Shown: positions 4,336 to 45,820, counted from the stretch's first letter. The stretch is DNA of 64,000 nucleotides from Candidatus Iainarchaeum sp. (GCA_043808155.1 JAZDFD010000016.1:15785-79784), one strand, 5' to 3'. Numbers and translations: made by a program. The notes: a model not told the origin generated them from the letters alone.

Positions 4336-5379
4336 ATGAGAAAAACAAAAAGTGTGAAAAAAACAAAAAGCAGGAAATTGGAACATATTAAAATTTGCTT
4401 AAATCAGAATGTTCAGTTCAGAGAAAAAACAACTGGTTTCGAAAGAATGGATTTTGCAGCAGTTGATTTGACATACAAAGCACTCCCTGAAATTAACAAA
4501 AAAGAAATTAATACTGAAACTAAATTTTTGGGAAAAAAGTTTTCTGCTCCTTTAATGGTTACTGCAATAACTGGCGGAGTACCAGAAGCAAAAACAATTA
4601 ATCTCGACATTGCAAAAGCATGTCAGGCACTTGGTTTGGGCATGGGTCTCGGAAGTCAGAGAGCAATGCTTGAGGATAAAAAAGTTTCAAATACTTACAA
4701 AGTCAGAGATATTGCACCTGATATTTTTATTGCAGGAAATATTGGTGTTTTGCAAATTCAGGAATATTCTGTTTCAGATATTAAATGGATGTTGGATGAG
4801 GTTGAGGCTGATGCTTTAGCAATTCACATTAATGCAGCCCAAGAAGCTCTTCAGAAAGATGGCGCAACAACCTTTAAAGGGGGGTTACGCGGAATTAAAA
4901 AACTTGCAAAAAATCTGAAAAAACCAGTTTATGTTAAGGAAGTAGGTCATGGAATTTCAGCAGATGTTGCTAAGCTCCTCTCAGACACTGGAATTAAAGC
5001 AATTGATGTTGCAGGTGCAGGCGGAACTTCATGGATTGGAGTCGATTCTTTACGTGGAAATAAGGAAAGCGGAGAAGTATTTTGGGATTTCGGAATCCCT
5101 ACCCTGGAGAGTCTGATTCAGGTTAAAGAGAGTTTCAAAGGCCAGATAGTCGCATCTGGGGGCATAAGAAATGGCTTGGAAATGGCAAAAGCATTGGTTT
5201 TAGGTGCGGATATGTGCGGAATTGCATTGCCTGTTTTGAAGGCTCAGAACGCAGGTGGTAGTGCAGGTGTTGAGAAATATTTGAGAATGCGGATTGAAGA
5301 ATTGAAAACAGCAATGTTTCTCACTGGTGCTAAAAATATCAAAGAATTAAAGCAACAGAAAGTTGTATCTTATACATAA
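4336..5379 (+). CDS. fni: Type 2 isopentenyl-diphosphate delta-isomerase
   Basis: RKLEHI, TAITGG, GLGSQR, HINAAQE, KEVGHG, AGAGGTSW, ASGGIRNG. Confidence 0.95.
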   Translation: MRKTKSVKKTKSRKLEHIKICLNQNVQFREKTTGFERMDFAAVDLTYKALPEINKKEINTETKFLGKKFSAPLMVTAITGGVPEAKTINLDIAKACQALGLGMGLGSQRAMLEDKKVSNTYKVRDIAPDIFIAGNIGVLQIQEYSVSDIKWMLDEVEADALAIHINAAQEALQKDGATTFKGGLRGIKKLAKNLKKPVYVKEVGHGISADVAKLLSDTGIKAIDVAGAGGTSWIGVDSLRGNKESGEVFWDFGIPTLESLIQVKESFKGQIVASGGIRNGLEMAKALVLGADMCGIALPVLKAQNAGGSAGVEKYLRMRIEELKTAMFLTGAKNIKELKQQKVVSYT

Positions 5380-5415
5380 CTTGATTAATAAAAAAAGAAA
5401 ATAAAAGGGCAAAAA

Positions 5416-14154: not shown

Positions 14155-14643
14155 CTATGCTTCTCTTTGTTTATAGTTTTCTGAAAGTTTAATCATCACT
14201 TCTTCAATTGAATTGAGTGATTCATTAATCGGTGTTTTAACCCAGTGGGAAAAACTTTCTTTCAAATTATTTGGTTCTGTTGTTGGGTTGTTGTTCAGGT
14301 AGTATCTGTTCCTTTTTCTTAGAATCAGATTCACATTCATCAGTCTGTTCAAATGATAGCGTGTGAGTTTTTCTGAGATATTTTTGTTGGTTTTATCAAG
14401 CACAAATGTCTGGATTTCCTTAGTTGTGGGATTGTGCTGTTTTGTAAGCAAGAAATAAAATAAACCATCAAGTACGTCCAGCACAGTTGCTCTTGATTCC
14501 TGTTCCGAAATAAGCCCAAACGAAAGCGCAAACCATCTCAGCATTGAACGCTTAGTCATCTGTACAGAGGGGGGAAGATCCATTTTTCTAATAGTAAATG
14601 TATTTCTTACAAGTTCTGATTCTGGAAATGAAACTTTTGGCAT
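14155..14643 (-). CDS. Winged-helix DNA-binding protein (uncharacterised archaeal family)
   Basis: wHTH-like segment TTKEIQ...ISEKLTRYHLNRLMNVNLILRKRNRYYL. Confidence 0.6.
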   Translation of the reverse strand: MPKVSFPESELVRNTFTIRKMDLPPSVQMTKRSMLRWFALSFGLISEQESRATVLDVLDGLFYFLLTKQHNPTTKEIQTFVLDKTNKNISEKLTRYHLNRLMNVNLILRKRNRYYLNNNPTTEPNNLKESFSHWVKTPINESLNSIEEVMIKLSENYKQREA

Positions 14644-14848
14644 TTGATCATCTCTTCTACATAATACTTCTACTAATATTTAGGAAACACTTTTTTTCCT
14701 TTGGACATATATTATTTGCAAAGTAGTATATAATTGTTTTTAGTGTCCATTAGGTTTTGATTAATTAGTTATGTTTGCTTAAATTTCAGGAAAGGTTTTT
14801 AGAAACAATTGCATGAAAATAAATATTACGAAATAAATTTCGGGGAGC

Positions 14849-15214
14849 GTGGATAATATGGTCAAGGTTATGTCAAATTTCACACCTTTAAGAATGAAAC
14901 TTTCAAGAAGGACACCAGTACAGTTATATGTTGAGGTTTCAAATGACGAAGCTGAAAACAAAATGGTTTCATTGTACATTAATTTAAGCAAAGATATCAG
15001 TTTTGAAAAGGGCGGGTTCAAAACAGATACTGTTGAAAGACTGTCTTCATTAAAGCCAGGTGAAACCAAACGATTCTATTATGAGTTACACCCCAAACCA
15101 CATCTTAATTATGGTGAACACAATGTGAAAGTTACTCTTTTAGATCATTATATTTCGTTTGATAACGTTAAAAATGAAAAAATAAGAAATATGTCTTTAA
15201 TGGTTGAGGAATAA
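14849..15214 (+). CDS. Hypothetical protein, single Ig/CARDB-like beta domain
   Basis: Beta-rich, LKPGETKRFYYEL pattern. Confidence 0.55.
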   Translation: MDNMVKVMSNFTPLRMKLSRRTPVQLYVEVSNDEAENKMVSLYINLSKDISFEKGGFKTDTVERLSSLKPGETKRFYYELHPKPHLNYGEHNVKVTLLDHYISFDNVKNEKIRNMSLMVEE

Positions 15215-15219
15215 TTCAT

Positions 15220-16101
15220 TTATTTCTCTTCCAAATAAAGCTCTGCTTTGTCAATTAGTACATTCCATAATCGTACTGTAAAGTTTCCCCGTTCCCAGTC
15301 GTCTTTTAATGGAATTTCAAGCCAGCCTTCAAAATCTTTTTCAATTTCCTCTGCAGATTTGCATTCAGAAGGTATGGTTGTGTCTTTGCAGATTGAATTG
15401 TCTTTATAGAAATAATACAAATCATAGTGATATCTGTTGTCCTTTCTGTATGCGCCTTGTTTTACAAATAATCTGAGAGTTGCATCATAATTATCCGAAT
15501 CATACTCTGAAGTATCAAATTCAAGTGCTAATGAATCAAAATATTTGCCTGATGTTGACGTTAAGAAATATTCTCTTGGGACGGTTCCGCATGGTTCTTT
15601 GCTTGAGCAGTTTGGTGCGAAAATGTCATCTAATTCAGAAACATCATCTAAAACATCAAATTCTTTAGTTCCTGTTCCGTCCTGATCCTGGATTGCTTCT
15701 GCTTTTACGGGTTCTAATGTGATTTTATTATTTGTGATATTTTGGTTTCCAGTATTTTCTGAATTTTTATTTGAAGCAAAATTGTCAATAGAAAGATATT
15801 CTCCAGAAAATAATCCTGTTATTTGTGAATCATTTGCCTGCGCATTCAAATTAAGAGCAAACACAAGAACCCCAATCATGGTCAATGCGAGTGCGAGAAG
15901 TAAAAATGATGAAACAAGTCCTTGTCCTGAATCAATGGACTCTTTTTTCTTATCTATTTGACCTTTTGAACCTGCAATTTGACCCTTAGATGAATCAATG
16001 GATCCTTTAGAAGAATTAATCTGTCCGTCTGAACCTGCAATTTGACCCTTAGATGAATCAATCTGTCCTTTAAATTTACTAGGTTTAGTTCCTTCTCCCA
16101 T
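15220..16101 (-). CDS. Membrane-anchored hypothetical protein with N-terminal heptad repeats
   Basis: KGQI(D/A)xS repeats followed by a TM helix and an extracellular domain. Confidence 0.65.
   Translation of the reverse strand: MGEGTKPSKFKGQIDSSKGQIAGSDGQINSSKGSIDSSKGQIAGSKGQIDKKKESIDSGQGLVSSFLLLALALTMIGVLVFALNLNAQANDSQITGLFSGEYLSIDNFASNKNSENTGNQNITNNKITLEPVKAEAIQDQDGTGTKEFDVLDDVSELDDIFAPNCSSKEPCGTVPREYFLTSTSGKYFDSLALEFDTSEYDSDNYDATLRLFVKQGAYRKDNRYHYDLYYFYKDNSICKDTTIPSECKSAEEIEKDFEGWLEIPLKDDWERGNFTVRLWNVLIDKAELYLEEK
15940..16075. repeat. 21-bp-period coding tandem repeat with a 33-bp exact duplication
   Basis: TGAACCTGCAATTTGACCCTTAGATGAATCAAT at 15967-15999 and 16030-16062. Confidence 0.85.
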
Positions 16102-16259
16102 ATCAAATTTGCATCTAACCAGTATATATATGTTATGTATACCTTATTTTCACACGCTTTCTTGGACGGATTCAAATTCCATTACAAAATTACATTTTTT
16201 TCACATGTCTGTCAATAGAATTTTAAGGATACCTCCTAATGATTATTTAGTGATTTTTT

Positions 16260-17672
16260 TTGAATCAAAGAGTATTGCTAATTTATCCAACTTATAAAAT
16301 TTTGATGGTTGCAGATGATGTTGTAAGTGCACCTGTAGTCGCACCTAATCTTGGTTTAGCATATGTAGCTGCATCTCTGGAACAGAATAACATTCCTGTG
16401 GACCTTCTTGATGCAAATTCTTTACAATCTACATTACCTGAAATACTTGACAAAGTTCGGGAATTTAACCCTACTATTATCGGTCTGGGATGTATAACAC
16501 CTACTGCAAAAATTTGTGTAGAACTTACAAAAAGACTGAAAGAATCCTTTCCAAACATAAAAATTGTTATTGGCGGGGTTCATGCTTATTTTAAAGCAGA
16601 TGAACTTATTCAGGAAAAAACTATTGATTTTGTTATTAGAGGAGAAGGGGAGTACGTTTTCCCTCAACTAGTAAACGCTCTTGATAAAAAAATGCCACTT
16701 GGCGGTGTTAAAGGACTTGTTTACAAATCCGGGGGTAAAGTGTTTGATAATGGTTTTGCAGATAGAATAATCGATTTGGATAAATTACCATTTCCAGCGA
16801 GACATTTACTACCAAATGAACTTTACAGTTCTCCTGGTTTGATAAAAGTCGGAGGAAAACCATTTGGGAGTATGATAACTTCAAGGGGCTGCCCCTTTTC
16901 ATGTAATTATTGTGCTTCAGCAGAATTATGGAAAAGAAAAGTAACATTTCATTCTGCAGATTACGTGTTAAAAGAATTAGATCAAATGGTTGAAACTCTC
17001 AAAATAAAATATTTGCATTTTTATGATGACACATTTAGTGTTAGACCTGACCGTGTTATGGACATCTGTAATGGGATGATTGACAGAGATTATAATTTGA
17101 AATGGGCAATTGAATTGAGAGTAAAAGGCGTAGATGAAAAAATGCTTGAAAAGTTAAAAGAAGCTGGCTGCGTAGGACTTTACTTTGGAATTGAGTTTGG
17201 TTCACAAAGAATTCTTGATCTTACAGAAAAAGGAATTACTATTGAAGATATTAAAAAAATGATGACATTAGTTGACAAAGTTGGCGGTTTTAATGTACAG
17301 GGATTTTTTATGATGGGTTATCCAACTGAAACAAAAGAAGAAATATTGCAAAGTATTGAACTTGCAAAGAGTTTGAATTTCCACAGTATTGGATTTTCTA
17401 TAGTGACTCCTTTTCCTGGTACACATCTTTATGATTATTGTGAAAAAAATAATTTGCTTGTTTCAAAAGATTGGAATAAATATAATCTTAAAGTCCCCAG
17501 AATGCTTATTAAAAATCCAAATTATACTGAAGAAGAACTAAAAGCCCTTTTTTCAAAAGGTTATCATGATTTTTATATAAGACCATCTTACATTGCCAAA
17601 ATGATTGCATCAATCAGAACAATAGATGAAGCAAAATACTATTTCTCACAGGGCATGAGAATGATAAAATAA
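16260..17672 (+). CDS. Cobalamin-binding radical SAM protein
   Basis: PNLGLAYVAA and GGVHA..GEGE B12 domain; SRGCPFSCNYC CxxxCxxC; TPFPGT. Confidence 0.9.
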   Translation: MNQRVLLIYPTYKILMVADDVVSAPVVAPNLGLAYVAASLEQNNIPVDLLDANSLQSTLPEILDKVREFNPTIIGLGCITPTAKICVELTKRLKESFPNIKIVIGGVHAYFKADELIQEKTIDFVIRGEGEYVFPQLVNALDKKMPLGGVKGLVYKSGGKVFDNGFADRIIDLDKLPFPARHLLPNELYSSPGLIKVGGKPFGSMITSRGCPFSCNYCASAELWKRKVTFHSADYVLKELDQMVETLKIKYLHFYDDTFSVRPDRVMDICNGMIDRDYNLKWAIELRVKGVDEKMLEKLKEAGCVGLYFGIEFGSQRILDLTEKGITIEDIKKMMTLVDKVGGFNVQGFFMMGYPTETKEEILQSIELAKSLNFHSIGFSIVTPFPGTHLYDYCEKNNLLVSKDWNKYNLKVPRMLIKNPNYTEEELKALFSKGYHDFYIRPSYIAKMIASIRTIDEAKYYFSQGMRMIK

Positions 17673-17681
17673 ATACACAAA

Positions 17682-18269
17682 TTATTGGACACTATTTTTC
17701 CATTCCTTAATTTTATGTTCCAATTCCAGTTGTTTAGCTGCAAGTTTATCAATTTTGCTTTCCATAGGTTTTTCAGAGTATTCTGCAGCTTTTCCTAAAT
17801 ACTGTTTAATTTTTTCAAAATTGTCCTCAAAAGGAAAATTGCAAGCTTTTTGTGCTATTGCAAGATCTGCTAAAGTTTCCGCAACTTCAATGTGCAACTC
17901 ATACATCCTATCTTTTTTTGCTTTTGGACTTTCATACAATAAAATATGATGTTCTGCCATTTCTGAACTGTTTCTAAACATTTTCAAAGCTGATGGGTAA
18001 TCCCCTATTTTCATGTAATGCAAACCTGATTTTCTAAAATGTTCAGCAGACTCTTTAAGCAACTCTAAATTAGTCTGATGACCCCCTCTTGCAAACCAAA
18101 CATCATGTAGCAATTCGCCACTTGCCCTGTAATGTATTGCAGCACTATGAGAATCATTATGTTGAGGCAGTTCTGCAATGTGCGCTTTGCTTGCATATTC
18201 TGTTGCATGATTTAGTGCAAGTTTACAGTGTTTAGCGGACCTTTCCATCGGACATCTACTTATTATCAT
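17682..18269 (-). CDS. Orphan helical hypothetical protein
   Basis: 195-aa ORF with GGTGA SD; no recognisable family. Confidence 0.55.
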   Translation of the reverse strand: MIISRCPMERSAKHCKLALNHATEYASKAHIAELPQHNDSHSAAIHYRASGELLHDVWFARGGHQTNLELLKESAEHFRKSGLHYMKIGDYPSALKMFRNSSEMAEHHILLYESPKAKKDRMYELHIEVAETLADLAIAQKACNFPFEDNFEKIKQYLGKAAEYSEKPMESKIDKLAAKQLELEHKIKEWKNSVQ

Positions 18270-18321
18270 AAAATCACCATTACAATTATTGCACTACTCT
18301 TAATTTAATTATGGTTCGATA

Positions 18322-18348
18322 GTTATGTATACTAATCTTATACATAAC
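18322..18348. promoter_or_regulatory. Perfect inverted repeat GTTATGTATA-N7-TATACATAAC between divergent genes
   Basis: Read directly from the sequence; the half-site recurs in other intergenic regions. Confidence 0.65.
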
Positions 18349-18394
18349 AAACACCTCAAATAACCTTAAATTCCTTCTGTTTTATGATATTTTA

Positions 18395-18748
18395 ATGGAT
18401 ATTGACGGTACTGTGAATGAGCTCTGGAAAAAGGGCTATAACTGCGCTGAATGCGTATTTATGGTACTTTCAAATGAGCTTAATTTTGAGCTATCTCCGC
18501 AAATACTGAAAATGGCTAAAATCATGGGTTCTGGCTACTATTCAGGCTGTATCTGCGGCAGCCTTTCTGCCTCAATTTCCTTCTGTGCGATTTACAAAGA
18601 ACCAGATTCAAAATTGGCAAAAACATTGTATGGCAAGTTCACGGAAAAGTTTGGCGCGAGTTGCTGTCGTGTGATTAGAAAGCAATGTTCGTGCACTGAC
18701 AAAATCACATTCTCAATAAACTCTGTTTTGGAAGAACTGCAGAAATAG
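18395..18748 (+). CDS. C-GCAxxG-C-C family putative redox protein
   Basis: GYNCAECV, GCICGSLS, FTEKFGASCC. Confidence 0.75.
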   Translation: MDIDGTVNELWKKGYNCAECVFMVLSNELNFELSPQILKMAKIMGSGYYSGCICGSLSASISFCAIYKEPDSKLAKTLYGKFTEKFGASCCRVIRKQCSCTDKITFSINSVLEELQK

Positions 18749-18904
18749 CACAATTCCTCTGTCTTCTACATAACATTATTCTCGCCATTTCACGCCACTT
18801 TTGATTATTCCACACCACTTCTCAAAATGTCCAGAATACGCCTCTAGGGGCTGTTTTAGAAAAAGTGCATTTTTTAAGGTTTTGTGAAAATCCACGAAGG
18901 AATT

Positions 18905-18932
18905 TTGCGGTATAAGATAGATTATATCGCAT
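18905..18932. other. Putative dif (Xer recombination) site TTGCGGTATAA-GATAGA-TTATATCGCAT
   Basis: 11-6-11 architecture, arms 9/11 complementary, TATAA-N6-TTATA core, centred in a non-coding gap. Confidence 0.65.
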
Positions 18933-19114
18933 TTGGGCTGTTTTTTGAAGCATTTTTATGCCAATACTGCCATTTCAAGTGGATGCGTGGGGGTTAGTTG
19001 GTCAGATGACTGAGTGCGATATTTGAAGAGAAGTAGAGTTGTTTGTTATGTATATTCTTTATCGCATTTTGAAGGTTTTTAACTTTTTTATATCCTTTTT
19101 ACAGATTTAATAAA

Positions 19115-19624
19115 TCAATTGCTTTTTTCAGGTCTGGCTCTAGCAGATTCGATTCTGTCTTTGCCTAAAGGTTTTTTATGAACATCTGAGGATGTTGCAT
19201 CCTTTCTTCTTTCTCTAAATAGAATATGCCCAGGCTCGCTAAGCTCATCTTGATCACGGATAAAATTACCTATATTTTTGTGTATTTCATTTGGCTTTAA
19301 AAATCTCTTTTCTTTATGTAACTCATAATGTTCTTTTGTAAGATCCGATTTTAATAAAAATTCCATATTTTTAGTAAGTTCGTGCCTTGATCTCGTCTCT
19401 AATATCTTAAGCTCATTTTTCTTCTTAAGTATTTCCTTTCGCATGTCTTCTCCGCTAGCTTGTCTTTTTTGTAAACTACTAAGTCCATTTACCACACGTT
19501 TAAGTGGTTCCACGTGTTCAAACCATCTAAAATCTCCCCAAGGTATCAAAATTCCTTTGCCACCATTTCTAAGTTCGACAATAGTGCCGCGTTGTCTACA
19601 ACGTCTATTTATAAAACGAGTCAT
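19115..19624 (-). CDS. Orphan basic hypothetical protein
   Basis: 169-aa ORF, TATA-like sequence upstream, no known motifs. Confidence 0.5.
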   Translation of the reverse strand: MTRFINRRCRQRGTIVELRNGGKGILIPWGDFRWFEHVEPLKRVVNGLSSLQKRQASGEDMRKEILKKKNELKILETRSRHELTKNMEFLLKSDLTKEHYELHKEKRFLKPNEIHKNIGNFIRDQDELSEPGHILFRERRKDATSSDVHKKPLGKDRIESARARPEKSN

Positions 19625-19705
19625 TTATCTTCACAATATTAATGTGTTTTAGAACTTTAAATATGTTTTGTTATTCGTTCTAAACGTGTTATTATTGTGA
19701 ATTTT

Positions 19706-19757
19706 TGTCCAACAATTTGTGTGTTTGATAAAAAAGTGTCCAACAAATTGTGAGTTT
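19706..19757 (+). repeat. Direct repeat TGTCCAACAAWTTGTGWGTTT x2, 31-bp period
   Basis: Copies start at 19706 and 19737; the same core occurs at 27043, 27186 and (reverse) 17676-17691. Confidence 0.8.
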
Positions 19758-19841
19758 ATTTGCAATAACTTAATAATGGAAAAATACATTATTCTTTAAT
19801 GGTAATTAAACGAATAAAAGACTTTTTTGATTTGGAAAATC

Positions 19842-20591
19842 TTATTCCACAATCAACCCAGTGCATCGCCAGTTAATTTCTGCGGTTCCTGTTTCTTCAC
19901 TTACAACACAAGCAGGGTTACAGCCTTCTTTTTCCAGATTTAAATTAATCCACCATGTTTTTGTGACTTCATTATATGAAATTTCATCTGTTAAAGTTCC
20001 CTCTGCTATGCATTCGCTGGCTTCCGCAATTTCTATCGCGCTAGATTCACTTAAATGTTCAATTTCATGCATTTCACCCGCTGGAACACAATATCCCAAA
20101 GCATCTGCTATTCCTGAAGGCATTTTACAAGTATATCCTCCGGGGCATCCAAAGCCTGCAATTCCGCCGCATTCGCAAAGTTCTGCGCAAACAGTTGGGC
20201 ATGCAATATCAAATCTTCCCTGATTATCAATTCCGCATTTACTTGAACATTCATTCCAATGTCCGCCAAAACCATTGCAGAATTCTTCTGACATTTCAAT
20301 TACTTCTGTAAATGAATTTCCAGAAACAGGATCTCTGCACTGCCGTGGATAACTCTCCATTACAGGGTTTCCTGCTGCAGCGCATTCATCAAAATTTGTT
20401 ATTTCCTGAGTTTCACATGGTTCTTCCCATGTTCTCAGACATTTCTGCTTAGCTTCGCACCAAGAATAACCCGCGCTTCCAATGCAACCATGTTCATCCT
20501 TGTCTCCGCCAACTATTTGGTTATCCGGTGTCTGAACACAGCCACTGAAAATCAATGCAAATGCTAATATTCCAATTATTAGTGCCTTCAT
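19842..20591 (-). CDS. Cys-rich secreted lipoprotein built from small disulfide modules
   Basis: FSGC lipobox-like; modules VGGDKDEHGCIGSAGYSWC, ITNFDECAAAGNPVMESYPRQC and GCNPACVV...EINWRCTG. Confidence 0.75.
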   Translation of the reverse strand: MKALIIGILAFALIFSGCVQTPDNQIVGGDKDEHGCIGSAGYSWCEAKQKCLRTWEEPCETQEITNFDECAAAGNPVMESYPRQCRDPVSGNSFTEVIEMSEEFCNGFGGHWNECSSKCGIDNQGRFDIACPTVCAELCECGGIAGFGCPGGYTCKMPSGIADALGYCVPAGEMHEIEHLSESSAIEIAEASECIAEGTLTDEISYNEVTKTWWINLNLEKEGCNPACVVSEETGTAEINWRCTGLIVE

Positions 20592-20702
20592 TTTTGCACC
20601 TCCCTTTGTGGATGAAATAATAATCAGATTAAGTATATTTAAAGAAATTCTTATTATTTGGAAATTTCCTAAGCAATAATTCCCTAATCTGTAGTTGTCT
20701 AA

Positions 20703-21059
20703 TCAGCGATATTTTTCTGCTTCACTAACTCTGATTGTTGCATAACCAAAGTCAGAATCCGGGTTAGGTCTGGTTCTCTTTCTTCTGAATTTGAAAATCA
20801 TTTTTCCCATGAAACTCCCAAAGAACAACCCGAAAAGAATGCTCAGAACAACCACTAATATTGTCAGAATAATCTTCACTGGATCAAGTCCAAAAAAGCC
20901 AGAAAGCACAAAAGCAGCAGCTACTGTCCCAATAATAAAGAAAACAAATCCGCTTATAACTGCCCAGAAACTGGACATGAAAATATTCCCAAATTCTCTA
21001 ACTACGCCCATAGCTTTAATGTGACTCAAAACATTATTTATTGTTTCGCTTGTTATCAT
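20703..21059 (-). CDS. Small two-TM membrane protein (start uncertain: 21059 or 21011)
   Basis: Two hydrophobic helices followed by a basic tail; the longer ORF-track start overlaps the divergent gene. Confidence 0.5.
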   Translation of the reverse strand: MITSETINNVLSHIKAMGVVREFGNIFMSSFWAVISGFVFFIIGTVAAAFVLSGFFGLDPVKIILTILVVVLSILFGLFFGSFMGKMIFKFRRKRTRPNPDSDFGYATIRVSEAEKYR

Positions 21060-21063
21060 CTGA

Positions 21064-21600
21064 ATGCCAGCACTAGTTAAACAAAAAAAAGTGAAAAGAC
21101 CAAAGCTAGTACGAATTGATTTGGATAAACCAATTGCAGAGCTTGTGAGCAAAAGTGACCACAAAACATTAGGTATCTGGGCAGCTGACTGTGCTGAGCG
21201 AGTATTACATTATTTTGAAGAAAAATATCCCGAAGATAATCGCCCACGAAAAGCCATAGACGCACTCTGCACATGGGTCCAGGATGGTGTGTTTAAAATG
21301 GCAGATATACGTGGAGCGTCACTTTCAGCTCATGCAGCAGCCCGTGAAGTGAAAGAAAATGATGATGCAGCTCGCTCTGCTGCCCGTGCTACTGGTCAGG
21401 CTTTGGCGACTGCACATGTGCCTACTCATGCCATCGGCGCTGCTGTTTACGCAGCCACTGCTGTTCGTGATGCAACCGACTCCAGTGATGCCACTAGCAA
21501 GGAACGAGATTGGCAATATCAACACTTGCTCAATATGAACAAAACAGCTGGTGCAACCAATCCTGAAAAGCGAACGCTCTGGAGAGGCAGGAAAAAATAA
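21064..21600 (+). CDS. Imm5-like 'putative immunity protein' domain protein
   Basis: WAADCAERVLHYFE..YPEDNRPRKAI, AHAAAR, AHVPTHA, ERDWQ; Ala-rich with higher GC than neighbours. Confidence 0.7.
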   Translation: MPALVKQKKVKRPKLVRIDLDKPIAELVSKSDHKTLGIWAADCAERVLHYFEEKYPEDNRPRKAIDALCTWVQDGVFKMADIRGASLSAHAAAREVKENDDAARSAARATGQALATAHVPTHAIGAAVYAATAVRDATDSSDATSKERDWQYQHLLNMNKTAGATNPEKRTLWRGRKK

Positions 21601-21699
21601 AACAAGATGATTTTAGAGGAAATCTACTCTGCAAGCATTTTAAAGAGTTTAGTATGATAGTATAATAAATAATCTATTAATTATGAAAAAGGTGATTTA

Positions 21700-21984
21700 T
21701 TGAAGGTAAAAGATTTAAAGGCACGAGCCGAAGTTGATGAAATTACTTTGGAAATTGTTTCAAAGGCAGAACCAAGAGAATTTACAAATGACAGAGGGTC
21801 AGGAAGAGTTTGCAGCGCAGCTGGTAAAGATAGTACTGGCGAAGTTAGCATAACACTCTGGAACGAGCAGATTGACCAGGTTGAAGAAGGAAATAAAATA
21901 AAGATTGAAGGTGGCTGGTGTTCTGACTATCAGGGCAATTTGCAGGTTAGTACTGGTAGAAAGGGCAATCTGACTGTTTTGTAA
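21700..21984 (+). CDS. ssb: Single OB-fold ssDNA-binding protein (SSB/RPA-like)
   Basis: KDSTGEVSITLWNEQ..VEEG..IKIEGGW...YQGNLQVSTGRKG; GGTGA SD before a TTG start. Confidence 0.82.
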   Translation: MKVKDLKARAEVDEITLEIVSKAEPREFTNDRGSGRVCSAAGKDSTGEVSITLWNEQIDQVEEGNKIKIEGGWCSDYQGNLQVSTGRKGNLTVL

Positions 21985-22023
21985 TTCCAAACTGTTTTAT
22001 TCTTGTTAGGCACTTACATTAGT

Positions 22024-22239
22024 ATGTGCCTTGCTCTTACTTGTGAAGTTATTGCAGTAACTGAAAAAGAACTAATTGTGGATTTCGCAGGGGAAAAGAA
22101 AAAAGCCCTGAATTTAACTAATGCTAAACCAGGCGACTTTGTAATTGTACAGCAGGGAATTGCAATTGAGAAAGTAAACAAAAAAGAAGCAAAAGAAAGA
22201 AAAAAAATCCTTGCAAAAGCTAAGAAACGAATTAATTAA
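22024..22239 (+). CDS. hypC: HypC/HupF-like hydrogenase maturation chaperone
   Basis: MCLA N-terminus (ATG at 22024), VDFAG, PGDFVIVQQGIAIEK. Confidence 0.75.
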   Translation: MCLALTCEVIAVTEKELIVDFAGEKKKALNLTNAKPGDFVIVQQGIAIEKVNKKEAKERKKILAKAKKRIN

Positions 22240-22301
22240 GTGCTAAAAGAAAACTAATTATTGCTATAATCTAATTAATTGCTATAATTGCTAAAAGAGA
22301 A

Positions 22302-23009
22302 TTAATTAATCGCTTCTAAATTGTTTATTGTGACTTTTTTCAGAGTTTCTAATTTTTTTGTGTTTAATTTCTCGCAAAATGACTCCCAGTGAAAAGAAAT
22401 CATATCTCCCTGAACAATTTCATCACCAAAATAGTTGCGAATTTGCTTTTTAGTATCATTTCCAAACACAAATTTTTCATTTTCTAAAACTATTGGAGTG
22501 TATGAAATTTCTAGTGTGTTTGCTCTACCCCTCAAAACCTCACCCCATGAGATTTTGCATTTGTCCAGATTTTCTATTACAGTCGGTACCTTTTTTGTTA
22601 ATGAGTTAATGTTAAACACATGAAATGAATGGTGTGCCGTTACATTTTCAGGAACTTTTTCAACTAATTTTGCTGAAATCTCAGATCCTAAAAATTCAGG
22701 TTTTGAAAACTTATTTAAAATCAAATTTCTAATATCTTTCGCATAAACATTTTCCAATAATTCATTCCCAATCCAGTAAGCTTCTGCAACTCTGTAATCA
22801 AACCAATGCATTTCATTCTTTTCAGCAATCAATCTCAGATATGCGCCCAATGCTTCAAACTTTGAAAGTGAATTTAAAATCTGCTCACCAACAAAAGAAT
22901 CTTTTCCTGAAATGTACTCCTGAATCAAATCACTTATATTTGAGGGTCCGCAGTAACCAAGTTTATTTGGCATGAATGAATAGCGGGACAAAAACTCAAT
23001 ATTATCCAT
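22302..23009 (-). CDS. DUF6390-like hydrogenase-associated protein
   Basis: RYSFMPNKLGYCGP, VAEAYWIGN, HHSFHVF, CKISWG, SFHW..CEKL. Confidence 0.7.
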   Translation of the reverse strand: MDNIEFLSRYSFMPNKLGYCGPSNISDLIQEYISGKDSFVGEQILNSLSKFEALGAYLRLIAEKNEMHWFDYRVAEAYWIGNELLENVYAKDIRNLILNKFSKPEFLGSEISAKLVEKVPENVTAHHSFHVFNINSLTKKVPTVIENLDKCKISWGEVLRGRANTLEISYTPIVLENEKFVFGNDTKKQIRNYFGDEIVQGDMISFHWESFCEKLNTKKLETLKKVTINNLEAIN

Positions 23010-23923
23010 TATTTTTCACGTGCAAGTAATTTCACTGGCATTTTTATCAATGAAATAAATTGTGAAATTCCCAGAACTAAAAGAACACCAACTAAAAGAA
23101 GTAAAAATCCAGCTGCCTGTATTATTGTAATTCCAGTTCCCAAAAATGCAAAAGAAAGTAATGCAGTAATTGGTTGCCCTAAAAGTAAAATTACTGCTGC
23201 TTTTGAAACATCAATATATTTCAAACCTGAATACCATGAAATAACATACAAAAACAGCAAAGCAGATGTTAAAAGAACCCACTGAATCTGCATAGTTCCT
23301 AATTCAAAAATCAAATTAAACTGATTTGTAACAATCAAAAAACCAATCATAAACAAAGAGCCAAAAAACATCCTTCCAAATGCAACTTGTGTTGCTTTAA
23401 GCTCCGTCAATACATGCTTACTCAGAACATTTTCCCCTGCCCAGAATAAAATTGCAATAAAAATTAAAATCTCTGCAAAACCAAATTCAGAAATATCTGA
23501 AAATAAAATTAAATTCCCTGCAAATAGCAAACACGCACCAATTAAGAAATTCTTACCCATTTTCTCTTTCAAAAGTACAAATGCGAACAACCCGATGAAG
23601 AGAAACATTGACTTGTGAATGAATCCCGCATTTATTGCAGACGTCATATTCAAAGCATAAAAGTAAAGCAAAAAGGGAATGCTCCCGCCAATTAATCCAA
23701 TCGCCATTAGTTTAATCCATTGAGCCTTGCTCATGGCTACCAACTTACGCCATTCTTTCAGAAGAAAAATTAATGAAATTAAAAATACACCCACAACTAG
23801 ATTTTTCATTGTAGCAAAAACAAAAGGATTCATCTCTGAAACCCCGAATTTATTAATGAAAATAGACATTCCTGAAACTAAGGCAGTTATTAAAACTAAA
23901 ATAAGCCCCTTATTTTGACTCAT
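23009..23923 (-). CDS. EamA/DMT family transporter
   Basis: About 10 TM helices in two repeats, ending LLKEK. Confidence 0.85.
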   Translation of the reverse strand: MSQNKGLILVLITALVSGMSIFINKFGVSEMNPFVFATMKNLVVGVFLISLIFLLKEWRKLVAMSKAQWIKLMAIGLIGGSIPFLLYFYALNMTSAINAGFIHKSMFLFIGLFAFVLLKEKMGKNFLIGACLLFAGNLILFSDISEFGFAEILIFIAILFWAGENVLSKHVLTELKATQVAFGRMFFGSLFMIGFLIVTNQFNLIFELGTMQIQWVLLTSALLFLYVISWYSGLKYIDVSKAAVILLLGQPITALLSFAFLGTGITIIQAAGFLLLLVGVLLVLGISQFISLIKMPVKLLAREK

Positions 23924-23974
23924 GCAAACAAATAGAAGTGAACTTTATTAAAAGCTTTAGCCAATGTTTTAGCA

Positions 23975-24361
23975 ATGAAAACCATACTAGTTTTTGGAAA
24001 TCCTTTAGTAACTGAAGATGCACTGGCTCTGAAAATCGCAGACAAACTCAGCACACGTCCTGAAGTAAATGAAAAATTCAGATTTATAAAAACAGATTCT
24101 TTGGACAATTTAGAAGAATACGGTGAAAATCTTCTGATTTTAGATGTTGCAGCAAATATAAAAAAAGTTGAAATAATAACTGATTTGAAGATGCTGGAGC
24201 AGAATAAAATTTACTCAATGCACGATTTTGACCTGGGTTTTAATTTGAAACTTCTGAAGAAATTAGGGAAAATAAAATCCGTGAAAATAATCGCAATTCC
24301 AATGAATTATTCTGAAAAACAAGCACTCACTGAAATAAAAGAAAAACTCAACTCCATTTGA
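23975..24361 (+). CDS. Hydrogenase maturation protease-like protein (HybD/HycI-like)
   Basis: VFGNPLVTED, LILD, SMHDF motifs. Confidence 0.7.
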   Translation: MKTILVFGNPLVTEDALALKIADKLSTRPEVNEKFRFIKTDSLDNLEEYGENLLILDVAANIKKVEIITDLKMLEQNKIYSMHDFDLGFNLKLLKKLGKIKSVKIIAIPMNYSEKQALTEIKEKLNSI

Positions 24362-24395
24362 AACTTAAAATCTTCAAATCGTTCTGAAACGAAAT

Positions 24396-25667
24396 TTAAC
24401 TCCATTTAACTTTCAAAAAGTGTGTTGCACAGCTCATACAGGGATCATAAGCCCTAATAAGCTTTTCAAGTTCTAAATTGATTTCTTTTTTCTTTTTATG
24501 CAGTATTGTTGGAATTAATTGTCTAATGTCCTGTTCAATATTGAAAACATTTTGTGCTGTTGGAATAACAACAATCTCTTTTGTTACATTCCCGTTGTTA
24601 TCAAAATGCATTTCATGGTATAATGTACCGCGCGGCGCTTCTGTTACACCATACCCAACCTCATCTTTAATTTCTAATTTAGGGATTGATTCATTCACAA
24701 ATCCTGCATTCAATAAATCAATTGAATAATCAATACAATGCAAAATCTCAATTGCCTGCGCTAAATTGTTTCTAAACGGTGAAATTGAAGGGAATAATTT
24801 TAATGCATTTGTGGAGTCTTTCTGAGTTTTTTTGTGCAAATTTTTCATATTCAAATTAATTCTTGCGAGTGCACCAACCATGTATTCTCTGTCATTGTGT
24901 TTAAACCCGTTTGCAGTGGAGTATGAGACACCGAATTTTCTAAAGTGTGAACCATAGGTTGTTTCCGGAACGCACATTCCGCAAGTATCTCTGATTTCCC
25001 CGTCTAAGAAATTATAATCCTCATTAACCATCCCCACAAAACAAGTTGGGCGTTCAAAAGGTTCTTTGTATGATGCAAACAAATTAATTGTTTCCACAGC
25101 CACAGGCCGTATCTGCTTCAAATATATTAACATTTCTTTAACTTTTTTATCCTCTGGAAATCTCAGAAAGCCACCAACACTTACAAATGCAGGATGTACT
25201 GAACCCCCGCCTATCAAAGTGCATAAATCATTCCCTGCTTTTTTCAAATCCAGTGCATTATGAAGGTGTTTGTGGTATTTTCCTTTGAAATCAAGTGCAC
25301 TTTCAACTCCCAAATAATCCGGCAAAGAGAAAAAATACAAATGTAATGCATGATCTCTTATTTGCATTGCGTTTTGCAGTAATTTTCGCATTCTGATTGT
25401 TTGTTCAGATGCTTTAAAATGTGCAGCGCGTTCAACTGCTTCTATTGCTGTTAAAAGATGTGCAACACTGCAGGTACCGCAAATCCTTGAAAGAATACTC
25501 GGAGCAATCATGAATGACTTCCCAACCACAATATCCTGAAAATACCGCTTACTTTCTGAAATTTGCAGTTTAACAGTCTCAACCTTTTTGTTTCTGATTT
25601 TAATATTCAGGTTTGCATGCCCTTCTATTTTTGAAATATTCTCAAGTGTTATGTCTCCTGAATGCAT
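24396..25667 (-). CDS. NiFe hydrogenase large (alpha) subunit, group 3b-like
   Basis: KIEGH, L1 RICGTCSVAH, HALHLYFFSLPDY, EAPRGTLYH, L2 YDPCMSCATH plus a cleavable tail. Confidence 0.92.
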   Translation of the reverse strand: MHSGDITLENISKIEGHANLNIKIRNKKVETVKLQISESKRYFQDIVVGKSFMIAPSILSRICGTCSVAHLLTAIEAVERAAHFKASEQTIRMRKLLQNAMQIRDHALHLYFFSLPDYLGVESALDFKGKYHKHLHNALDLKKAGNDLCTLIGGGSVHPAFVSVGGFLRFPEDKKVKEMLIYLKQIRPVAVETINLFASYKEPFERPTCFVGMVNEDYNFLDGEIRDTCGMCVPETTYGSHFRKFGVSYSTANGFKHNDREYMVGALARINLNMKNLHKKTQKDSTNALKLFPSISPFRNNLAQAIEILHCIDYSIDLLNAGFVNESIPKLEIKDEVGYGVTEAPRGTLYHEMHFDNNGNVTKEIVVIPTAQNVFNIEQDIRQLIPTILHKKKKEINLELEKLIRAYDPCMSCATHFLKVKWS

Positions 25668-26252
25668 TCAATCACCTAATGATTCGTTATTTACGAGTTT
25701 TCTTACAAGTTTAATGAATTCTTCTCCTTTTGGAGGGCAGCCATGCAATAAATGTTCAACTTTGATGTGCTCATGAATTGGTTTTACATCAATTTGTTTA
25801 AATTTTTCAATCATTGGCTTAATTTTTTCTTTGAGTTGCGGGGAAATATCATTTCTCATTTTTGGATAGCCGCCAGTTGTTGCACAGCTCCCTATTGAAA
25901 TCACTTTTTTTGCCTGTTTTCTGATTTCCTTCAGTTTGGGGAGTTCTTTTTTGCTTGAAATTGCACCCTCTACAAATGCAACATCCATTTTAGGGCTTTT
26001 TTTAGTGCTTTTAAGCAATCTCATTGAAACAATCTCAATATCATCAAGAAGTTTAAAGAATTCGTAATTCTGTGCAAGAATCTCGATTTGACAGCCTTCA
26101 CAGCCTGTAAAATCAAAAAATCCAATCTTTAATTTCTTCTTCAAGCCACTCTTTACTTTCTTTTTCACGGCTTGCTTCTTCTGGTTCTTCTCTAAGCTCT
26201 TTTTCACAGCTTTCTTCTTTACGTTCTTCTTCACTTGCTTCTTTACGCTCAT
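25668..26252 (-). CDS. NiFe hydrogenase small (delta) subunit, proximal-cluster domain only, with Lys-rich N-terminal extension
   Basis: TGCEGCQ, VEGAI, GSCATTGG, GCPP; the gene ends shortly after GCPP; likely start ATG at 26252. Confidence 0.85.
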   Translation of the reverse strand: MSVKKQVKKNVKKKAVKKSLEKNQKKQAVKKKVKSGLKKKLKIGFFDFTGCEGCQIEILAQNYEFFKLLDDIEIVSMRLLKSTKKSPKMDVAFVEGAISSKKELPKLKEIRKQAKKVISIGSCATTGGYPKMRNDISPQLKEKIKPMIEKFKQIDVKPIHEHIKVEHLLHGCPPKGEEFIKLVRKLVNNESLGD

Positions 26253-26305
26253 TCCAATTAATAAGAGCGTTGAAATTAATAAATAATGACTCACAATACT
26301 GCTTT

Positions 26306-26515
26306 TCAATATCTCTTTTTTCTAACTTCGTCACTTGCAAGTTTAGGGAGTATGAAGAATGAAAAAACACCAGTGACACCCATTATCACTGCAAAAGAAA
26401 GCCAGTCAATCCACATAAATAGAAATAGTATGAATGAAATAACAAGCACAATAACAAGAAGAGTAGCTATTGCTTTCAAAATAGTAAAATAATCCATGCT
26501 ATAAGCAATGTGCAA
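26306..26515 (-). CDS. Small membrane protein
   Basis: Two hydrophobic segments. Confidence 0.5.
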   Translation of the reverse strand: MHIAYSMDYFTILKAIATLLVIVLVISFILFLFMWIDWLSFAVIMGVTGVFSFFILPKLASDEVRKKRY

Positions 26516-26522
26516 CCAATTA

Positions 26523-26780
26523 TTAAATAATTCCTGGGAAAACCCATGGGAGTATCAGCACTAAGATGAATAACAGGATTCCCTGATCCAAGTCACGCCA
26601 CATCACAGGGATTGCAAGCCCCATAAGCAAAAAGTAAAAAACACTTGTTTGAGTCATAGATAGATAATATCCAAATAAGGCCCCAATAAAGAAGAACATA
26701 ATCAGAACTGAACCAATCTTCCTCAACAGAACAGGGATGCCATCAATAATTCCTTTGAAAAAATTATAAAATAGACTCAT
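26523..26780 (-). CDS. Small membrane protein
   Basis: Three hydrophobic segments. Confidence 0.55.
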   Translation of the reverse strand: MSLFYNFFKGIIDGIPVLLRKIGSVLIMFFFIGALFGYYLSMTQTSVFYFLLMGLAIPVMWRDLDQGILLFILVLILPWVFPGII

Positions 26781-27800
26781 ATAGACATAATCTTAGTTCA
26801 TGAGCTTTAAGTACTTTTTGGTTAGCGAGTTTTTCTTTTGCTAGTGGGCAGTTAAGTGGCGGGCAGTAGTTGTTGATTGGTTTATTGTTATGTATATTCA
26901 TTATTTGGCTGATTTTTAATTATGTAGTAGGTTATGTATACGTATTTAGGCATATTATGTATAAGTTGAATTTTGAAATTACCCACCAATATAGTAATTA
27001 TGTTTCTTACCATTTGTGAAATCTAGTAATTTTCTGAAATTTTGTCCAAAAAAGTGTGAATTCGCTCATACTCCCAAGTATCCCCAAAAACCCCTATGCA
27101 ACAGATCTTCTCCTCCCTAGCCCTATTCAAAATATGGCCTTCTGGAGTCATCTTCTCCAAAAAAATAGTGTGATTTGAAAAATTCTGTCCAAGAAAATGT
27201 GTGTTTTAAAATTTAAATTGCTAATTTTGCCTGTTTTGGAAACTTAGGGCTTAATTTAGACCCAAAATGAAAAATAAACCAAAAATAGGGTTTTTAGTTG
27301 ATAAATTGAACCTTTTTTATGGATTTTATTAGTAAATCCAAACCATTTTCACGTTTTTTTGATTTTTTACTGTCTAGGGTAGGGGTTTATAGGCAAAAAA
27401 CCCTCAAAAAAGCAATTTTTTCTGGGAAAAACAATTAGTTTTTAAGAAATAAATTCATTCCTAATGTGTTATGTATATAAAATCCACATTATTTGACCTA
27501 GTCTAGGTCTATTTTGGCAATTATATTATAAGGAAAAACTTTTTTTCTTTAAGCAATAAACTATTCCTTGTGTTATTTAAAACCTAATTAATAGGTGTTT
27601 TAAGCTCTTAATTTGGCATCTAATCATGGTCAGACCCACAATCCCCACTCCAAATTACCAATTCTAATTTAAAATTTACCACGCCCTAGCCAATTCAAGG
27701 TAAATTCAGTAGTGTCAAAACACTAAAAAACTGTTATGTAGACAGCCTTTTTTGTGCCTTACCCAAAAGAATTTAAACATCTTAGAACAAATATTAACTC
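26781..27800. other. 1-kb ORF-free intergenic island with clustered repeated motifs and palindromes
   Basis: No ORF of 60 aa or more; five RTTATGTAKA copies, two TGTCCAA-N5-TGTG copies, palindrome GACCTAGTCTAGGTC at 27495-27509. Confidence 0.7.
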
Positions 27801-29031: not shown

Positions 29032-29649
29032 TTACTCTTCCTCAATTTCCCCATTAGGTTTAACTTCATGGAATATCTGCGCCTGAAATTTAAAAATCTG
29101 TGTGTCGTCATCTTTCCATGCCTCGGATTTCAAACCTGCTTTTTGGCAGGTATGCTGAAGAAACTCTTCGGGTGTCCAATTATATTCAAACCCCACTTGC
29201 GGAAGCAACAACCCCGACTGATAACCCTTTCTAATAATCAATCCGTCTTTTCCAATTTCAATATGTTTTGCAATCCTGCCTTTACTAACTGTAATCTCTT
29301 CGGGAACTGTAAGAACTGAAATTTCAATCGTGATTTCATCCAGCTCATGCGTATCAATTTGCTGAAATCGAGTATCTGAAAAAGCAGCACTACTCGCAGC
29401 TTCAATAACGCCTAACCACAAAGGCATTACAGGTTCAGGAAAACCAATGCAACCTCTTAACTCCCCAGAAGGGAATTTCTCCAAAGTAACAAAAACACCA
29501 CGTTTGTCCAAGAATTTGCGAGGAATATCATCCTTATATTTCTGCCCAGTTGCCAGTGTATATTCAATTGATTTCCTTGCAACTTTCACTAGTTTCTGAG
29601 CATCTTCCAAGGAAAATTTTTTAGACATACTTAAATTACCTACAAACAA
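29032..29649 (-). CDS. AMMECR1 / AmmeMemoRadiSam protein A family
   Basis: GVFVTL...LRGCIG, DTRF, IEISVLT, GLLLPQV, CQKAGL. Confidence 0.9.
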   Translation of the reverse strand: MFVGNLSMSKKFSLEDAQKLVKVARKSIEYTLATGQKYKDDIPRKFLDKRGVFVTLEKFPSGELRGCIGFPEPVMPLWLGVIEAASSAAFSDTRFQQIDTHELDEITIEISVLTVPEEITVSKGRIAKHIEIGKDGLIIRKGYQSGLLLPQVGFEYNWTPEEFLQHTCQKAGLKSEAWKDDDTQIFKFQAQIFHEVKPNGEIEEE

Positions 29650-45561: not shown

Positions 45562-45820
45562 CTGAAGAACGCCAATTTGGGCTTATTTCGTTTTAATTCC
45601 AAATCTGCGCCTTTTATATCCAAAAAGAACGCTAATTTGAGCTTTATTTTTATGTATATGTAAAAATAATTATGTAGAAAAAAAGCATTTTAAAAAATCG
45701 TAAAATTTCGGTTATGTATATGACCTTTATTTTCAATGCTCAGCCTATTTCTGAGCATTTTAAGAAAAGAAAAAAAGTTTTTCCTAACGACCAATACTAT
45801 TAGCCAAACATCATGCAGGC

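Follow-up and report, generated by a model that had tools for sequence, protein, structure and literature searches.

In this study, we analysed a 64,000-nucleotide stretch of DNA from Candidatus Iainarchaeum sp. (contig C16:15785-79784 of assembly G000; hereafter the window, with positions counted from its first letter) and found that two long sequence words, motif A (RTTATGTAKA) and motif B (TGTCCAA-N5-TGTG), mark both chromosome arms, converging on or diverging from dif. Both are replichore-polarity words, which keep one orientation per arm and reverse exactly at dif. Judged by analogy, guidance of the type provided by FtsK-orienting polar sequences (KOPS) is the most likely function of the two motifs, and we give it a probability of about 0.45. 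The source organism is a small, uncultured DPANN archaeon of the Diapherotrites/Iainarchaeota, represented by a metagenome-assembled genome (MAG) of ~1.1 Mb; the assembly comprises 1.08 Mb in 35 contigs, is 88% complete, has 35% G+C, and contains an archaeal 16S gene. Labels of the form G0xx and G1xx denote genomes (G000 is the window's own), Cn contigs, Lnnn related loci, and fN families. Two relatives were fetched whole: G028 (contig C9, 853,278 bp) and G015 (a single contig of 1,241,428 bp, 99% complete).

Two words reverse their orientation at dif

Motif A has 16 matches in the window against 0.50 expected; the largest shuffle gave 4, and 0 of 100 shuffles reached 16. Motif B has five matches against 0.03 expected, a number that 0 of 100 shuffles reached. 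A preliminary description of the window had placed motif A on the minus strand in 4 of 6 copies left of 18.9 kb and on the plus strand in 9 of 10 copies to the right, and we obtained the same counts (4 minus and 2 plus, then 9 plus and 1 minus; one-sided Fisher p = 0.036). All five exact motif B copies that it listed, at 17676 (minus) and at 19706, 19737, 27043, and 27186 (plus), were recovered, and its "looser" copy at 14701 consists of the TGTCCAA half only. The copies were said to be mostly intergenic, which agrees with our open reading frame (ORF) map (13 of the 16 motif A and all five exact motif B copies), and the flip was said to coincide with a dif-like site, which we find at 18905-18932, between the motif A copies at 18765 (minus) and 19045 (plus). 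The window makes up 6% of the G000 bases yet holds 16 of 41 motif A copies and five of eight exact motif B copies. This genome has a second cluster of motif copies on contig C34, where they surround its only full-length tyrosine recombinase gene.

The same polarity runs along whole chromosomes. In G028, motif A is on the minus strand in 17 of 17 copies from 121,945 to 602,590 and then on the plus strand in 8 of 8 from 602,808 to 764,221. In G015, 29 of 30 copies from 187 kb to 963,874 are minus and 10 of 10 from 964,218 to 1,184 kb are plus, with a flip interval of 963,884-964,217; two copies at 46-56 kb are also plus, so that 41 of 42 fit a two-arm model. G001:C2 carries 11 minus and then 6 plus copies, G017:C18 6 minus and then 8 plus, and G041:C1 8 minus and then 10 plus, and 21 of 23 copies in G018:C1 fit two arms. 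The minus-then-plus switch is also present in G020:C14, G010:C7, G035:C9, G116:C127, and G113:C6, and motif A flips in G039:C18 and G040:C11, which belong to a second order of the same class. Contigs off the switch are uniform (G010:C1, 16 of 16 minus; G017:C25, 8 of 8 minus). On the contigs of G000, 20 of 25 adjacent motif A pairs are same-stranded, a value reached by 19 of 20,000 strand shuffles. The genome-wide random orientation that the preliminary description had named as an argument against a terminus system was not seen in G028, G015, or G000, and the arrangement around dif is conserved in relatives: at least 12 genomes of this order, as well as two of the second order, show the flip.

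A Markov model of order 3 predicts 1.3-1.4 motif A copies per orientation; 25 (G028) and 41 (G015) were observed one way and 0 and 1 the other way, corresponding to an enrichment of ~20-30x over expectation in one orientation only. In an unbiased scan of all 8-mers with at least nine copies and a polarity of at least 10:1 in G028 and G015, words derived from motif A came out on top in both genomes. A ranking of k-mer polarity by binomial p-value was abandoned, as it was swamped by purine-rich coding-strand words; the ranking by ratio worked. Motif A is kept by selection for a word, not by composition. Its density is flat along both arms to the far pole, at 0.2-0.4 per 10 kb, increases to 1-4 per 10 kb at 1-20 kb from the flip (in G015, with none at 1-5 kb), and climbs to 15 per 10 kb in the last kilobase before dif, ~40-70-fold above the value on the arms.

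The element is longer than the pattern used for its detection. Position +10 is A in 49 of 66 copies, and the flanking sequence is rich in A from -8 to -4 and in T from +15 to +27, also in copies within genes. Because of this preference at +10 and the conserved flanks, motif A is an element of ~40 bp, the core of which, TTATGTAKAA, is preceded by an A-tract and followed by a T-rich tract. Loosening any one position of the motif brings in mainly non-polar copies.

Motif A is neither a promoter nor a hairpin, nor is it linked to genes. It is 5-8x enriched in intergenic DNA, which makes up 6.5-10.5% of the bases and holds 13 of 25, 24 of 42, and 31 of 41 copies in three genomes; 25-50% of the copies lie in ORFs, with sense:antisense ratios of 6:6, 4:14, and 4:6. 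Between 4 and 904 nt separate motif A from the next co-oriented start codon. The peak that TATA-like words form 20-40 nt before starts has no counterpart in motif A words, and the kinds of intergenic region holding motif A match the background. A fixed spacing to start codons or TATA boxes, which the preliminary description had set out as the mark of an ordinary regulon, was thus not seen for motif A. A structured RNA or hairpin was ruled out because there is no excess folding energy at motif A (mean minimum free energy, -10.0 kcal/mol for 108 copies vs -11.7 kcal/mol for 400 random windows) and no Rfam or tRNA match in the window.

Motif B follows motif A in polarity (18 of 20 copies in G028). 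In that genome it is minus at 273-601 kb and plus at 603-842 kb and 21-53 kb, with two exceptions, one of them non-consensus. Its consensus is TGTCCAAGAATTTGTG, of which G028 has 11 exact, 7 one-mismatch, and 3 two-mismatch copies; degenerate copies with 3 mismatches were discarded as noise (22 vs 23 in the reversed control). Of the 31 genomes of the order, 28 contain the exact pattern, and 0-2 the reversed control. The best-kept copies of G028 lie around dif, 1.3 kb to its left and 0.4 kb to its right, and a dif-proximal copy on the right side, as at 19706 in the window, is likewise present in G018 (0.5 kb) and G015 (a one-mismatch copy at 0.65 kb). In G028, 15 of 15 in-ORF copies are antisense to the ORF as written and occupy all three frames (5, 7, and 3). 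A peptide motif was ruled out, since the 16-mer occurs in all three frames, and motif B is therefore read at the nucleic-acid level. Motif B of G028 obeys this transcription-sense rule besides the arm rule; the sense rule fails in G000, where 2-3 copies are in sense. On G000 contig C34, motif B occupies the same intergenic gap as in G028, within the block of genes around xerA described below.

The dif site, the terminus, and xerA

The site at 18905-18932 is an 11-6-11 imperfect palindrome with 9 of 11 arm positions complementary and a TAA-N6-TTA core, the feature that the available text of PMC11840125 gives as the most conserved of archaeal dif. In 11 genomes, the flip gap holds a dif-like palindrome, nnnnRYATAA-N6-TTATRYnnnn, with arm complementarity of 8-10 of 11 (the G028 site is a CAA variant). 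This gap, from the innermost minus to the innermost plus motif A copy, spans 150-345 bp, with the exception of G010 (3.4 kb), and in 10 genomes the innermost copies are 40-200 bp away from dif on either side. The outer arm bases vary among genomes but co-vary (GCAGGATAA/TTATCCTGC, CCGTATAA/TTATACG, and GCAGCATAA/TTAGGCTGC). A loose structural dif pattern has 13 matches in G000, 9 in G028, and 3 in G015; the arms of most of these are AT-only, and the flip-point site is one of the few with G+C-rich outer arms. As the loose pattern is not unique in AT-rich genomes, the identification of dif rests on conserved position and co-variation. The site has the 11-6-11 palindrome, the TAA-N6-TTA, the position at the skew switch, and the XerA orthologue of archaeal XerA/dif, from which it differs in nothing; it is a new lineage-specific version. 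We conclude that 18905-18932 is the XerA/dif site of the chromosome at its skew-defined terminus, and recombination there by XerA is predicted.

An integrated element or att duplication was considered and rejected: BLAST of the 367-bp dif region against the genome returned no second copy, and the genes of the window are chromosomal. The sole other match of this region in G000 has 16 nt (C34:60912-60927) and lies inside a direct motif A pair, the two copies of which (C34:60,912-60,937) are 6 bp apart and have the 16-nt string in common with the dif site of the window.

To cancel the coding-strand effect, GC and AT skews at third codon positions (GC3 and AT3) were averaged over genes of both strands. 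The preliminary description had proposed to plot motif position and strand against cumulative GC skew; in G028 and G015, the cumulative GC3 and AT3 skews both have their maxima at the motif flip. The 16S rRNA gene, located close to the opposite pole, is oriented towards the flip, and so are purine-rich coding-strand words. From this compositional evidence, we read the flip as the replication terminus. Polarity flips at both skew-defined poles. An origin at the opposite pole was sought via repeats in long intergenic regions, and nothing was found there.

The recombinase P0001 on G000:C34 has a Phage_integrase and a SAM-like N domain, an Xer-type pair, and its best PDB matches are archaeal XerA (4a8e, 1e-56; 5hxy, 4e-47); by its sequence, it is an XerA orthologue. 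Its gene, xerA, is the only full-length PF00589 gene in G000, G028, G015, and G018. The distance from xerA to the flip is 0.1 kb in G113, 0.6 kb in G001, 2.3 kb in G028, 10.5 kb in G018, and 14 kb in G015, and the gene is transcribed away from the flip in all five. In G000, the xerA block lies whole on C34, with gene order conserved with G028 and G015, and the linked genes are housekeeping genes (PRC barrel, TFE-alpha, Trm56, and SerRS). One or two motif A copies follow just downstream of xerA in the same orientation in G000, G001, G015, G028, L130, and L131 and, by coordinates, also in G010, G017, and G018. A 14-nt element, GCACTTCCACYAWT, is conserved after the xerA stop codon in five genomes, and in the second order the gaps in which the motifs flip contain the related CTTACTTCCGGTAA, upstream of a small ORF on the minus strand.

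Whereas dif adjoins xerA in some families, it is distant in others. In G029 of family f30, a dif-like site, ATGCAAGATAA-N6-TTATCCCGCAA, with 8 of 11 positions complementary, lies at C1:622,531-622,558 (L153), 455 kb from xerA and 7 kb from a homologue of the winged-helix protein P0002 (see below), without flanking motif A. This genome keeps the site despite the lack of motif A over-representation in its family. Around it, the 8-nt core of motif A keeps a weak polarity, with 2 minus and then 3 plus copies; a scan of 400 kb for an alternative polar word gave many chance perfect splits, none of which stands out.

Possible functions and candidate readers

KOPS, as portrayed in the accessible part of PMC2958812, are words that point to dif along both replichores, invert at dif, and are denser in its vicinity, and the available text of PMC5993296 places such words in the wider class of architecture-imparting sequences (AIMS). 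Motifs A and B resemble them in all three respects: they lie on both replichores, invert at dif, and become denser towards it. The whole-arm distribution and the steep rise towards dif are the signature of KOPS, and the KOPS-type reading is based on them. There are also clear differences. KOPS are G-rich octamers, whereas the words described here are AT-rich, 10-16 nt long, and ~10x sparser on the arms, with near-absolute polarity because chance copies are rare; in addition, neither FtsK nor its gamma domain was found in the three genomes searched. In archaea, the archaeal short polarized sequences (ASPS) of Thermococcales, the 4-nt words GTTG, GTTC, and TGGT (Cortez et al. 2010, PMC2958812), are comparable in that the organisms are FtsK-less and the skew culminates near the XerA dif site. 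As far as the available portion of that paper describes them, ASPS represent a statistical skew with rounded cumulative curves, whereas the words in this study are discrete and long, with a symmetric pair ~100 bp off dif. ASPS are defined as the 4-nt most-skewed words peaking near dif, and the words found here are at least 10 nt long; among shorter words, purine-rich coding-strand words dominate. The polar system centred on dif that the preliminary description proposed is well supported, with fork trapping, translocase guidance, and terminus structuring as its candidate functions, and no record of it in print was found; polarity at an archaeal dif as such was already known from ASPS (PMC2958812). 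Neither of the two motifs nor any polar-motif system of DPANN archaea was found in the literature searched, the coverage of which was limited.

We propose that motifs A and B may be recognition sites bound by a putative factor that needs the direction of dif. Such a factor could orient a DNA translocase or a loop-extruding machine towards dif, or, alternatively, could assemble the XerA synapse or restrict it to the terminus. The strand reading 5'-TMTACATAAY-3' and 5'-CACAAATTCTTGGACA-3' would be the one that points towards dif, and, given the fork direction derived from skew, this would be the nascent leading strand. Whether a dedicated polarity system exists in Diapherotrites/Iainarchaeota, consisting of the two words and one or more putative readers unrelated to FtsK, Tus, RTP, and SMC, appears to us an evenly balanced question. 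None of the proteins that define the bacterial families was found in the searches for them, so that the system does not belong to these families: Tus (PF05472) had no match in 31 genomes, and RTP (PF02334) none above the cut-off in the same number, with two weak matches. The weak PF01580 match of G000 is a T2SSE ATPase of the type-IV-pilus type. HerA-like DUF87 genes are present, as in other archaea, with no tie to the motifs.

The 162-aa winged-helix protein P0002 was examined as a candidate reader. It lies 1.8-8 kb from dif in four of six genomes compared and is single-copy in 96 of 121 genomes. Its predicted structure (pLDDT 90.5) combines a winged helix with a long C-terminal helix, and its structural matches are generic winged-helix folds only, all with E >= 0.08. 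In G000, G015, and G040, the start of its gene is preceded by a motif A copy at a distance of no more than ~15 nt, which is not the case in G001, G028, G035, or G041. P0002 is present in 13 of 15 f30 genomes without motif A over-representation, and searches did not find it in f22 and f31, two families that do have motif A. As its distribution does not track motif A, we rejected it as the reader and keep it as a lead only.

Several observations weigh against KOPS-type guidance. Searches for FtsK (PF01580) in three genomes returned only below-cut-off matches at the level of Walker motifs, and the FtsK gamma domain (PF09397) was found in none of the three. The SMC hinge (PF06470) was absent from the search results for G000, G028, G015, and G001, including the 99%-complete single contig, while the same search matched 10 of 14 control genomes. 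The reader protein itself is one that we infer. The arms carry just one motif A copy per 25-50 kb, a spacing that looks far too wide to steer a fast translocase, and 3 of the 16 motif A copies in the window are on the unexpected strand. Over-representation of motif A is family-specific: it is strong in most families and the second order, and families f3, f30, and f24 show none relative to the reversed control. In G030:C3:45,571-57,443 (L062), eight motif A copies stand in reverse strand order (+,+,-,+,-,-,-,-), and no dif-like palindrome was found on this contig; an inversion, an origin-type flip, or a misassembly could account for it. The second motif A flip of G015 (56-187 kb) agrees with the GC3 minimum and not with the AT3 minimum (~340 kb), and both Orc1/Cdc6 genes of G028 and G015 lie 75-165 kb either side of dif, not at the opposite pole. 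In G000, the second Orc1/Cdc6 gene (C24:71776-72830) is matched in two adjoining open frames, which cover model positions 1-203 and 203-366; this suggests a frameshift or a split gene.

The geometry of the motifs also resembles the Ter sites of E. coli (Ter/Tus) and B. subtilis (Ter/RTP), which the available text of PMC4999828 describes as polar sites in opposed groups around the terminus. A polar fork barrier, in which A and/or B bind a terminator other than Tus or RTP and grant one-way passage to forks and perhaps RNA polymerase, would trap forks at dif and block origin-ward replication anywhere on the arms; we regard it as unlikely, though worth serious attention. Its two opposed groups of long (10-16 nt), low-copy sites with near-absolute polarity are those expected of Ter, and the agreement of gene and arm polarity in 15 of 15 in-ORF motif B copies of G028 is what a barrier that stops both replication and transcription from one side would impose, but the sense rule of motif B fails in G000 (2-3 sense copies). 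In E. coli, the tus gene lies beside a Ter site (Tus autoregulation), and RTP is a winged-helix protein. P0002, also a winged-helix protein, is conserved 1.8-8 kb from dif, with motif A upstream in three genomes (G000, G015, and G040), yet it does not co-vary with motif A, and neither Tus nor above-cut-off RTP was found in the 31 genomes. Moreover, the sites span whole arms with a flat motif A density to the far pole, which a fork trap does not need, and copies in the wrong orientation are not below the Markov expectation (0 and 1 vs 1.3-1.4), so that strong counter-selection is not supported. Motif A could instead be a degenerate dif arm bound by XerA monomers, comparable to the XDS (XerD-binding) sites of B. 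subtilis, which bind XerD and are dif-like according to the accessible portion of PMC11840125. The flanking pair would then shape the synapse and favour resolution, and the dispersed copies would keep XerA, or a machine that XerA unloads, on track. The dif-proximal end of the complement of A (..CATAA) does resemble the inner dif arm (RYATAA) in the same orientation on both sides, but the common core has just 4-5 bases and could be due to chance in an AT-rich genome. The innermost copies flanking dif at 40-200 bp in 10 genomes and those just downstream of xerA fit such half-sites, for which XDS and the conserved inverted flanks of Thermococcales dif offer a precedent in the available texts (PMC11840125, PMC2958812). 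In Thermococcus kodakarensis, however, the available part of PMC11840125 reports by ChIP-seq that dif is the XerA binding site, and that the dif-associated boundary, a TrmBL2-dependent SMC boundary in dif-flanking DNA, needs neither XerA nor dif. XDS and this boundary share with our motifs the principle of DNA elements beside dif acting on chromosome-organising machines; no SMC hinge was found in our four genomes, and polarity is not reported for those systems in the part of the source available. Motif B is unlike dif, and we hold the half-site explanation to be improbable.

Still less probable is a replication-strand signal unrelated to dif (priming, repair, or Chi-like recombination) that follows fork direction. 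It would explain the flips at both skew poles and the presence of the words inside genes of either sense, but it leaves the 40-70-fold rise in density at dif, the symmetric pair, and the copies beside xerA unexpected, and the density is too low for priming. An ordinary regulon, with A or B as an operator or promoter element whose strand follows gene orientation, seems very unlikely indeed. The 5-8x intergenic enrichment of motif A, the BRE-like A-rich stretch before it, and the palindromic pair at 18322-18348, which sits 52 and 63 nt from two divergent start codons, would agree with it, yet start distances of 4-904 nt with no TATA-like peak, 25-50% of copies in genes in both senses, and background-like kinds of intergenic region do not, and a regulon does not predict that 41 of 42 copies obey chromosome arms. 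Plus/minus motif A pairs like the one at 18322-18348 are also present 0.5-0.8 kb from dif in G035 and G116.

Since the description of archaeal Xer/dif in 2010, it has been a question whether FtsK-less archaea direct the finding or protection of the terminus by sequence. What was known before in archaea was a diffuse 4-nt skew only; new here are discrete words, conserved in two orders, that obey the arms almost without exception (41 of 42 and 25 of 25 copies). If a dedicated system is true, it would be the first discrete KOPS- or Ter-type system in Archaea, independent of the bacterial ones, and its words would signal the direction of dif to a DNA-tracking machine or to the replication fork itself. 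The words supply defined DNA baits and invertible sites, which make the question testable even in an uncultured lineage. In practical use, the strand of a word gives the replichore of a MAG contig and the direction of dif, which helps to order and check DPANN assemblies.

Features and gene content of the window

Features in the window (positions 1-64,000) and, where a genome or locus is named, in related sequences
Feature	Position	Strand	Remarks
Motif A, expected strand for left arm	5371..5380	-	pattern match
P0002, 162-aa winged-helix protein, candidate reader only	14155..14643	-	conserved near dif
Motif A	14656..14665	-	12 nt upstream of start of winged-helix gene 14155-14643
121-aa protein, no family	14849..15214	+	neighbour of P0002 near dif, conserved in 4 of 6 compared genomes
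Motif A, unexpected strand for left arm	16132..16141	+	pattern match
Motif B	17676..17691	-	1.2 kb left of dif
Palindromic motif A pair GTTATGTATA-N7-TATACATAAC	18322..18348	.	between divergent genes
Innermost left motif A	18765..18774	-	130 bp from dif
dif-like site TTGCGGTATAAGATAGATTATATCGCAT = TTGCGGTATAA GATAGA TTATATCGCAT	18905..18932	.	flip point of both motifs
Innermost right motif A	19045..19054	+	112 bp from dif
Motif B	19706..19721	+	0.8 kb right of dif
Motif B, in tandem with 19706 copy	19737..19752	+	pattern match
Gene-free stretch, 1 kb	26781..27800	.	no ORF; 5 motif A and 2 motif B copies, all plus strand
Motif A in 1-kb gene-free stretch	26887..26896	+	pattern match
Motif A in 1-kb gene-free stretch	26931..26940	+	pattern match
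Motif A in 1-kb gene-free stretch	26954..26963	+	pattern match
Motif B in gene-free stretch	27043..27058	+	pattern match
Motif B in gene-free stretch	27186..27201	+	pattern match
Motif A in 1-kb gene-free stretch	27468..27477	+	pattern match
Motif A	27733..27742	+	58 nt upstream of PLD-like gene 27801-28430
Motif B with one mismatch, sixth copy	29505..29520	+	antisense inside AMMECR1 gene
Motif A within minus-strand ORF	44428..44437	+	pattern match and ORF map
Motif A, paired with 45711 copy	45669..45678	+	pattern match
Motif A, paired with 45669 copy	45711..45720	+	pattern match
Motif A, unexpected strand for right arm	46392..46401	-	inside FttA gene
Orc1/Cdc6 genes, G028:C9	528,168-529,277 and 711,234-712,277
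Orc1/Cdc6 genes, G015:C1	839,789-840,895 and 1,127,072-1,128,109
Element GCACTTCCACYAWT	G000:C34 ~52,700; G028 605,7xx; G015 978,7xx; G001 (L059); L130

The gene-free stretch of the right arm has no Rfam or tRNA match and no informative similarity elsewhere; its closest similarity is a weak 101-nt match near the dif of G017, with none other. For the window as a whole, no Rfam family or tRNA was matched anywhere.

The genes of the window are an ordinary chromosomal set, which includes mevalonate-pathway enzymes, a NiFe hydrogenase, a B12/radical-SAM enzyme, FttA, and a Hel308-type helicase. At 21064-21600 (+), 2 kb from dif, a 178-aa protein matches an Imm-5-like putative immunity family (E 5e-42), and its neighbours belong to no family. 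The Hel308-type archaeal helicase (1225 aa, 52803-56480, +) is split by an intein with a LAGLIDADG domain.

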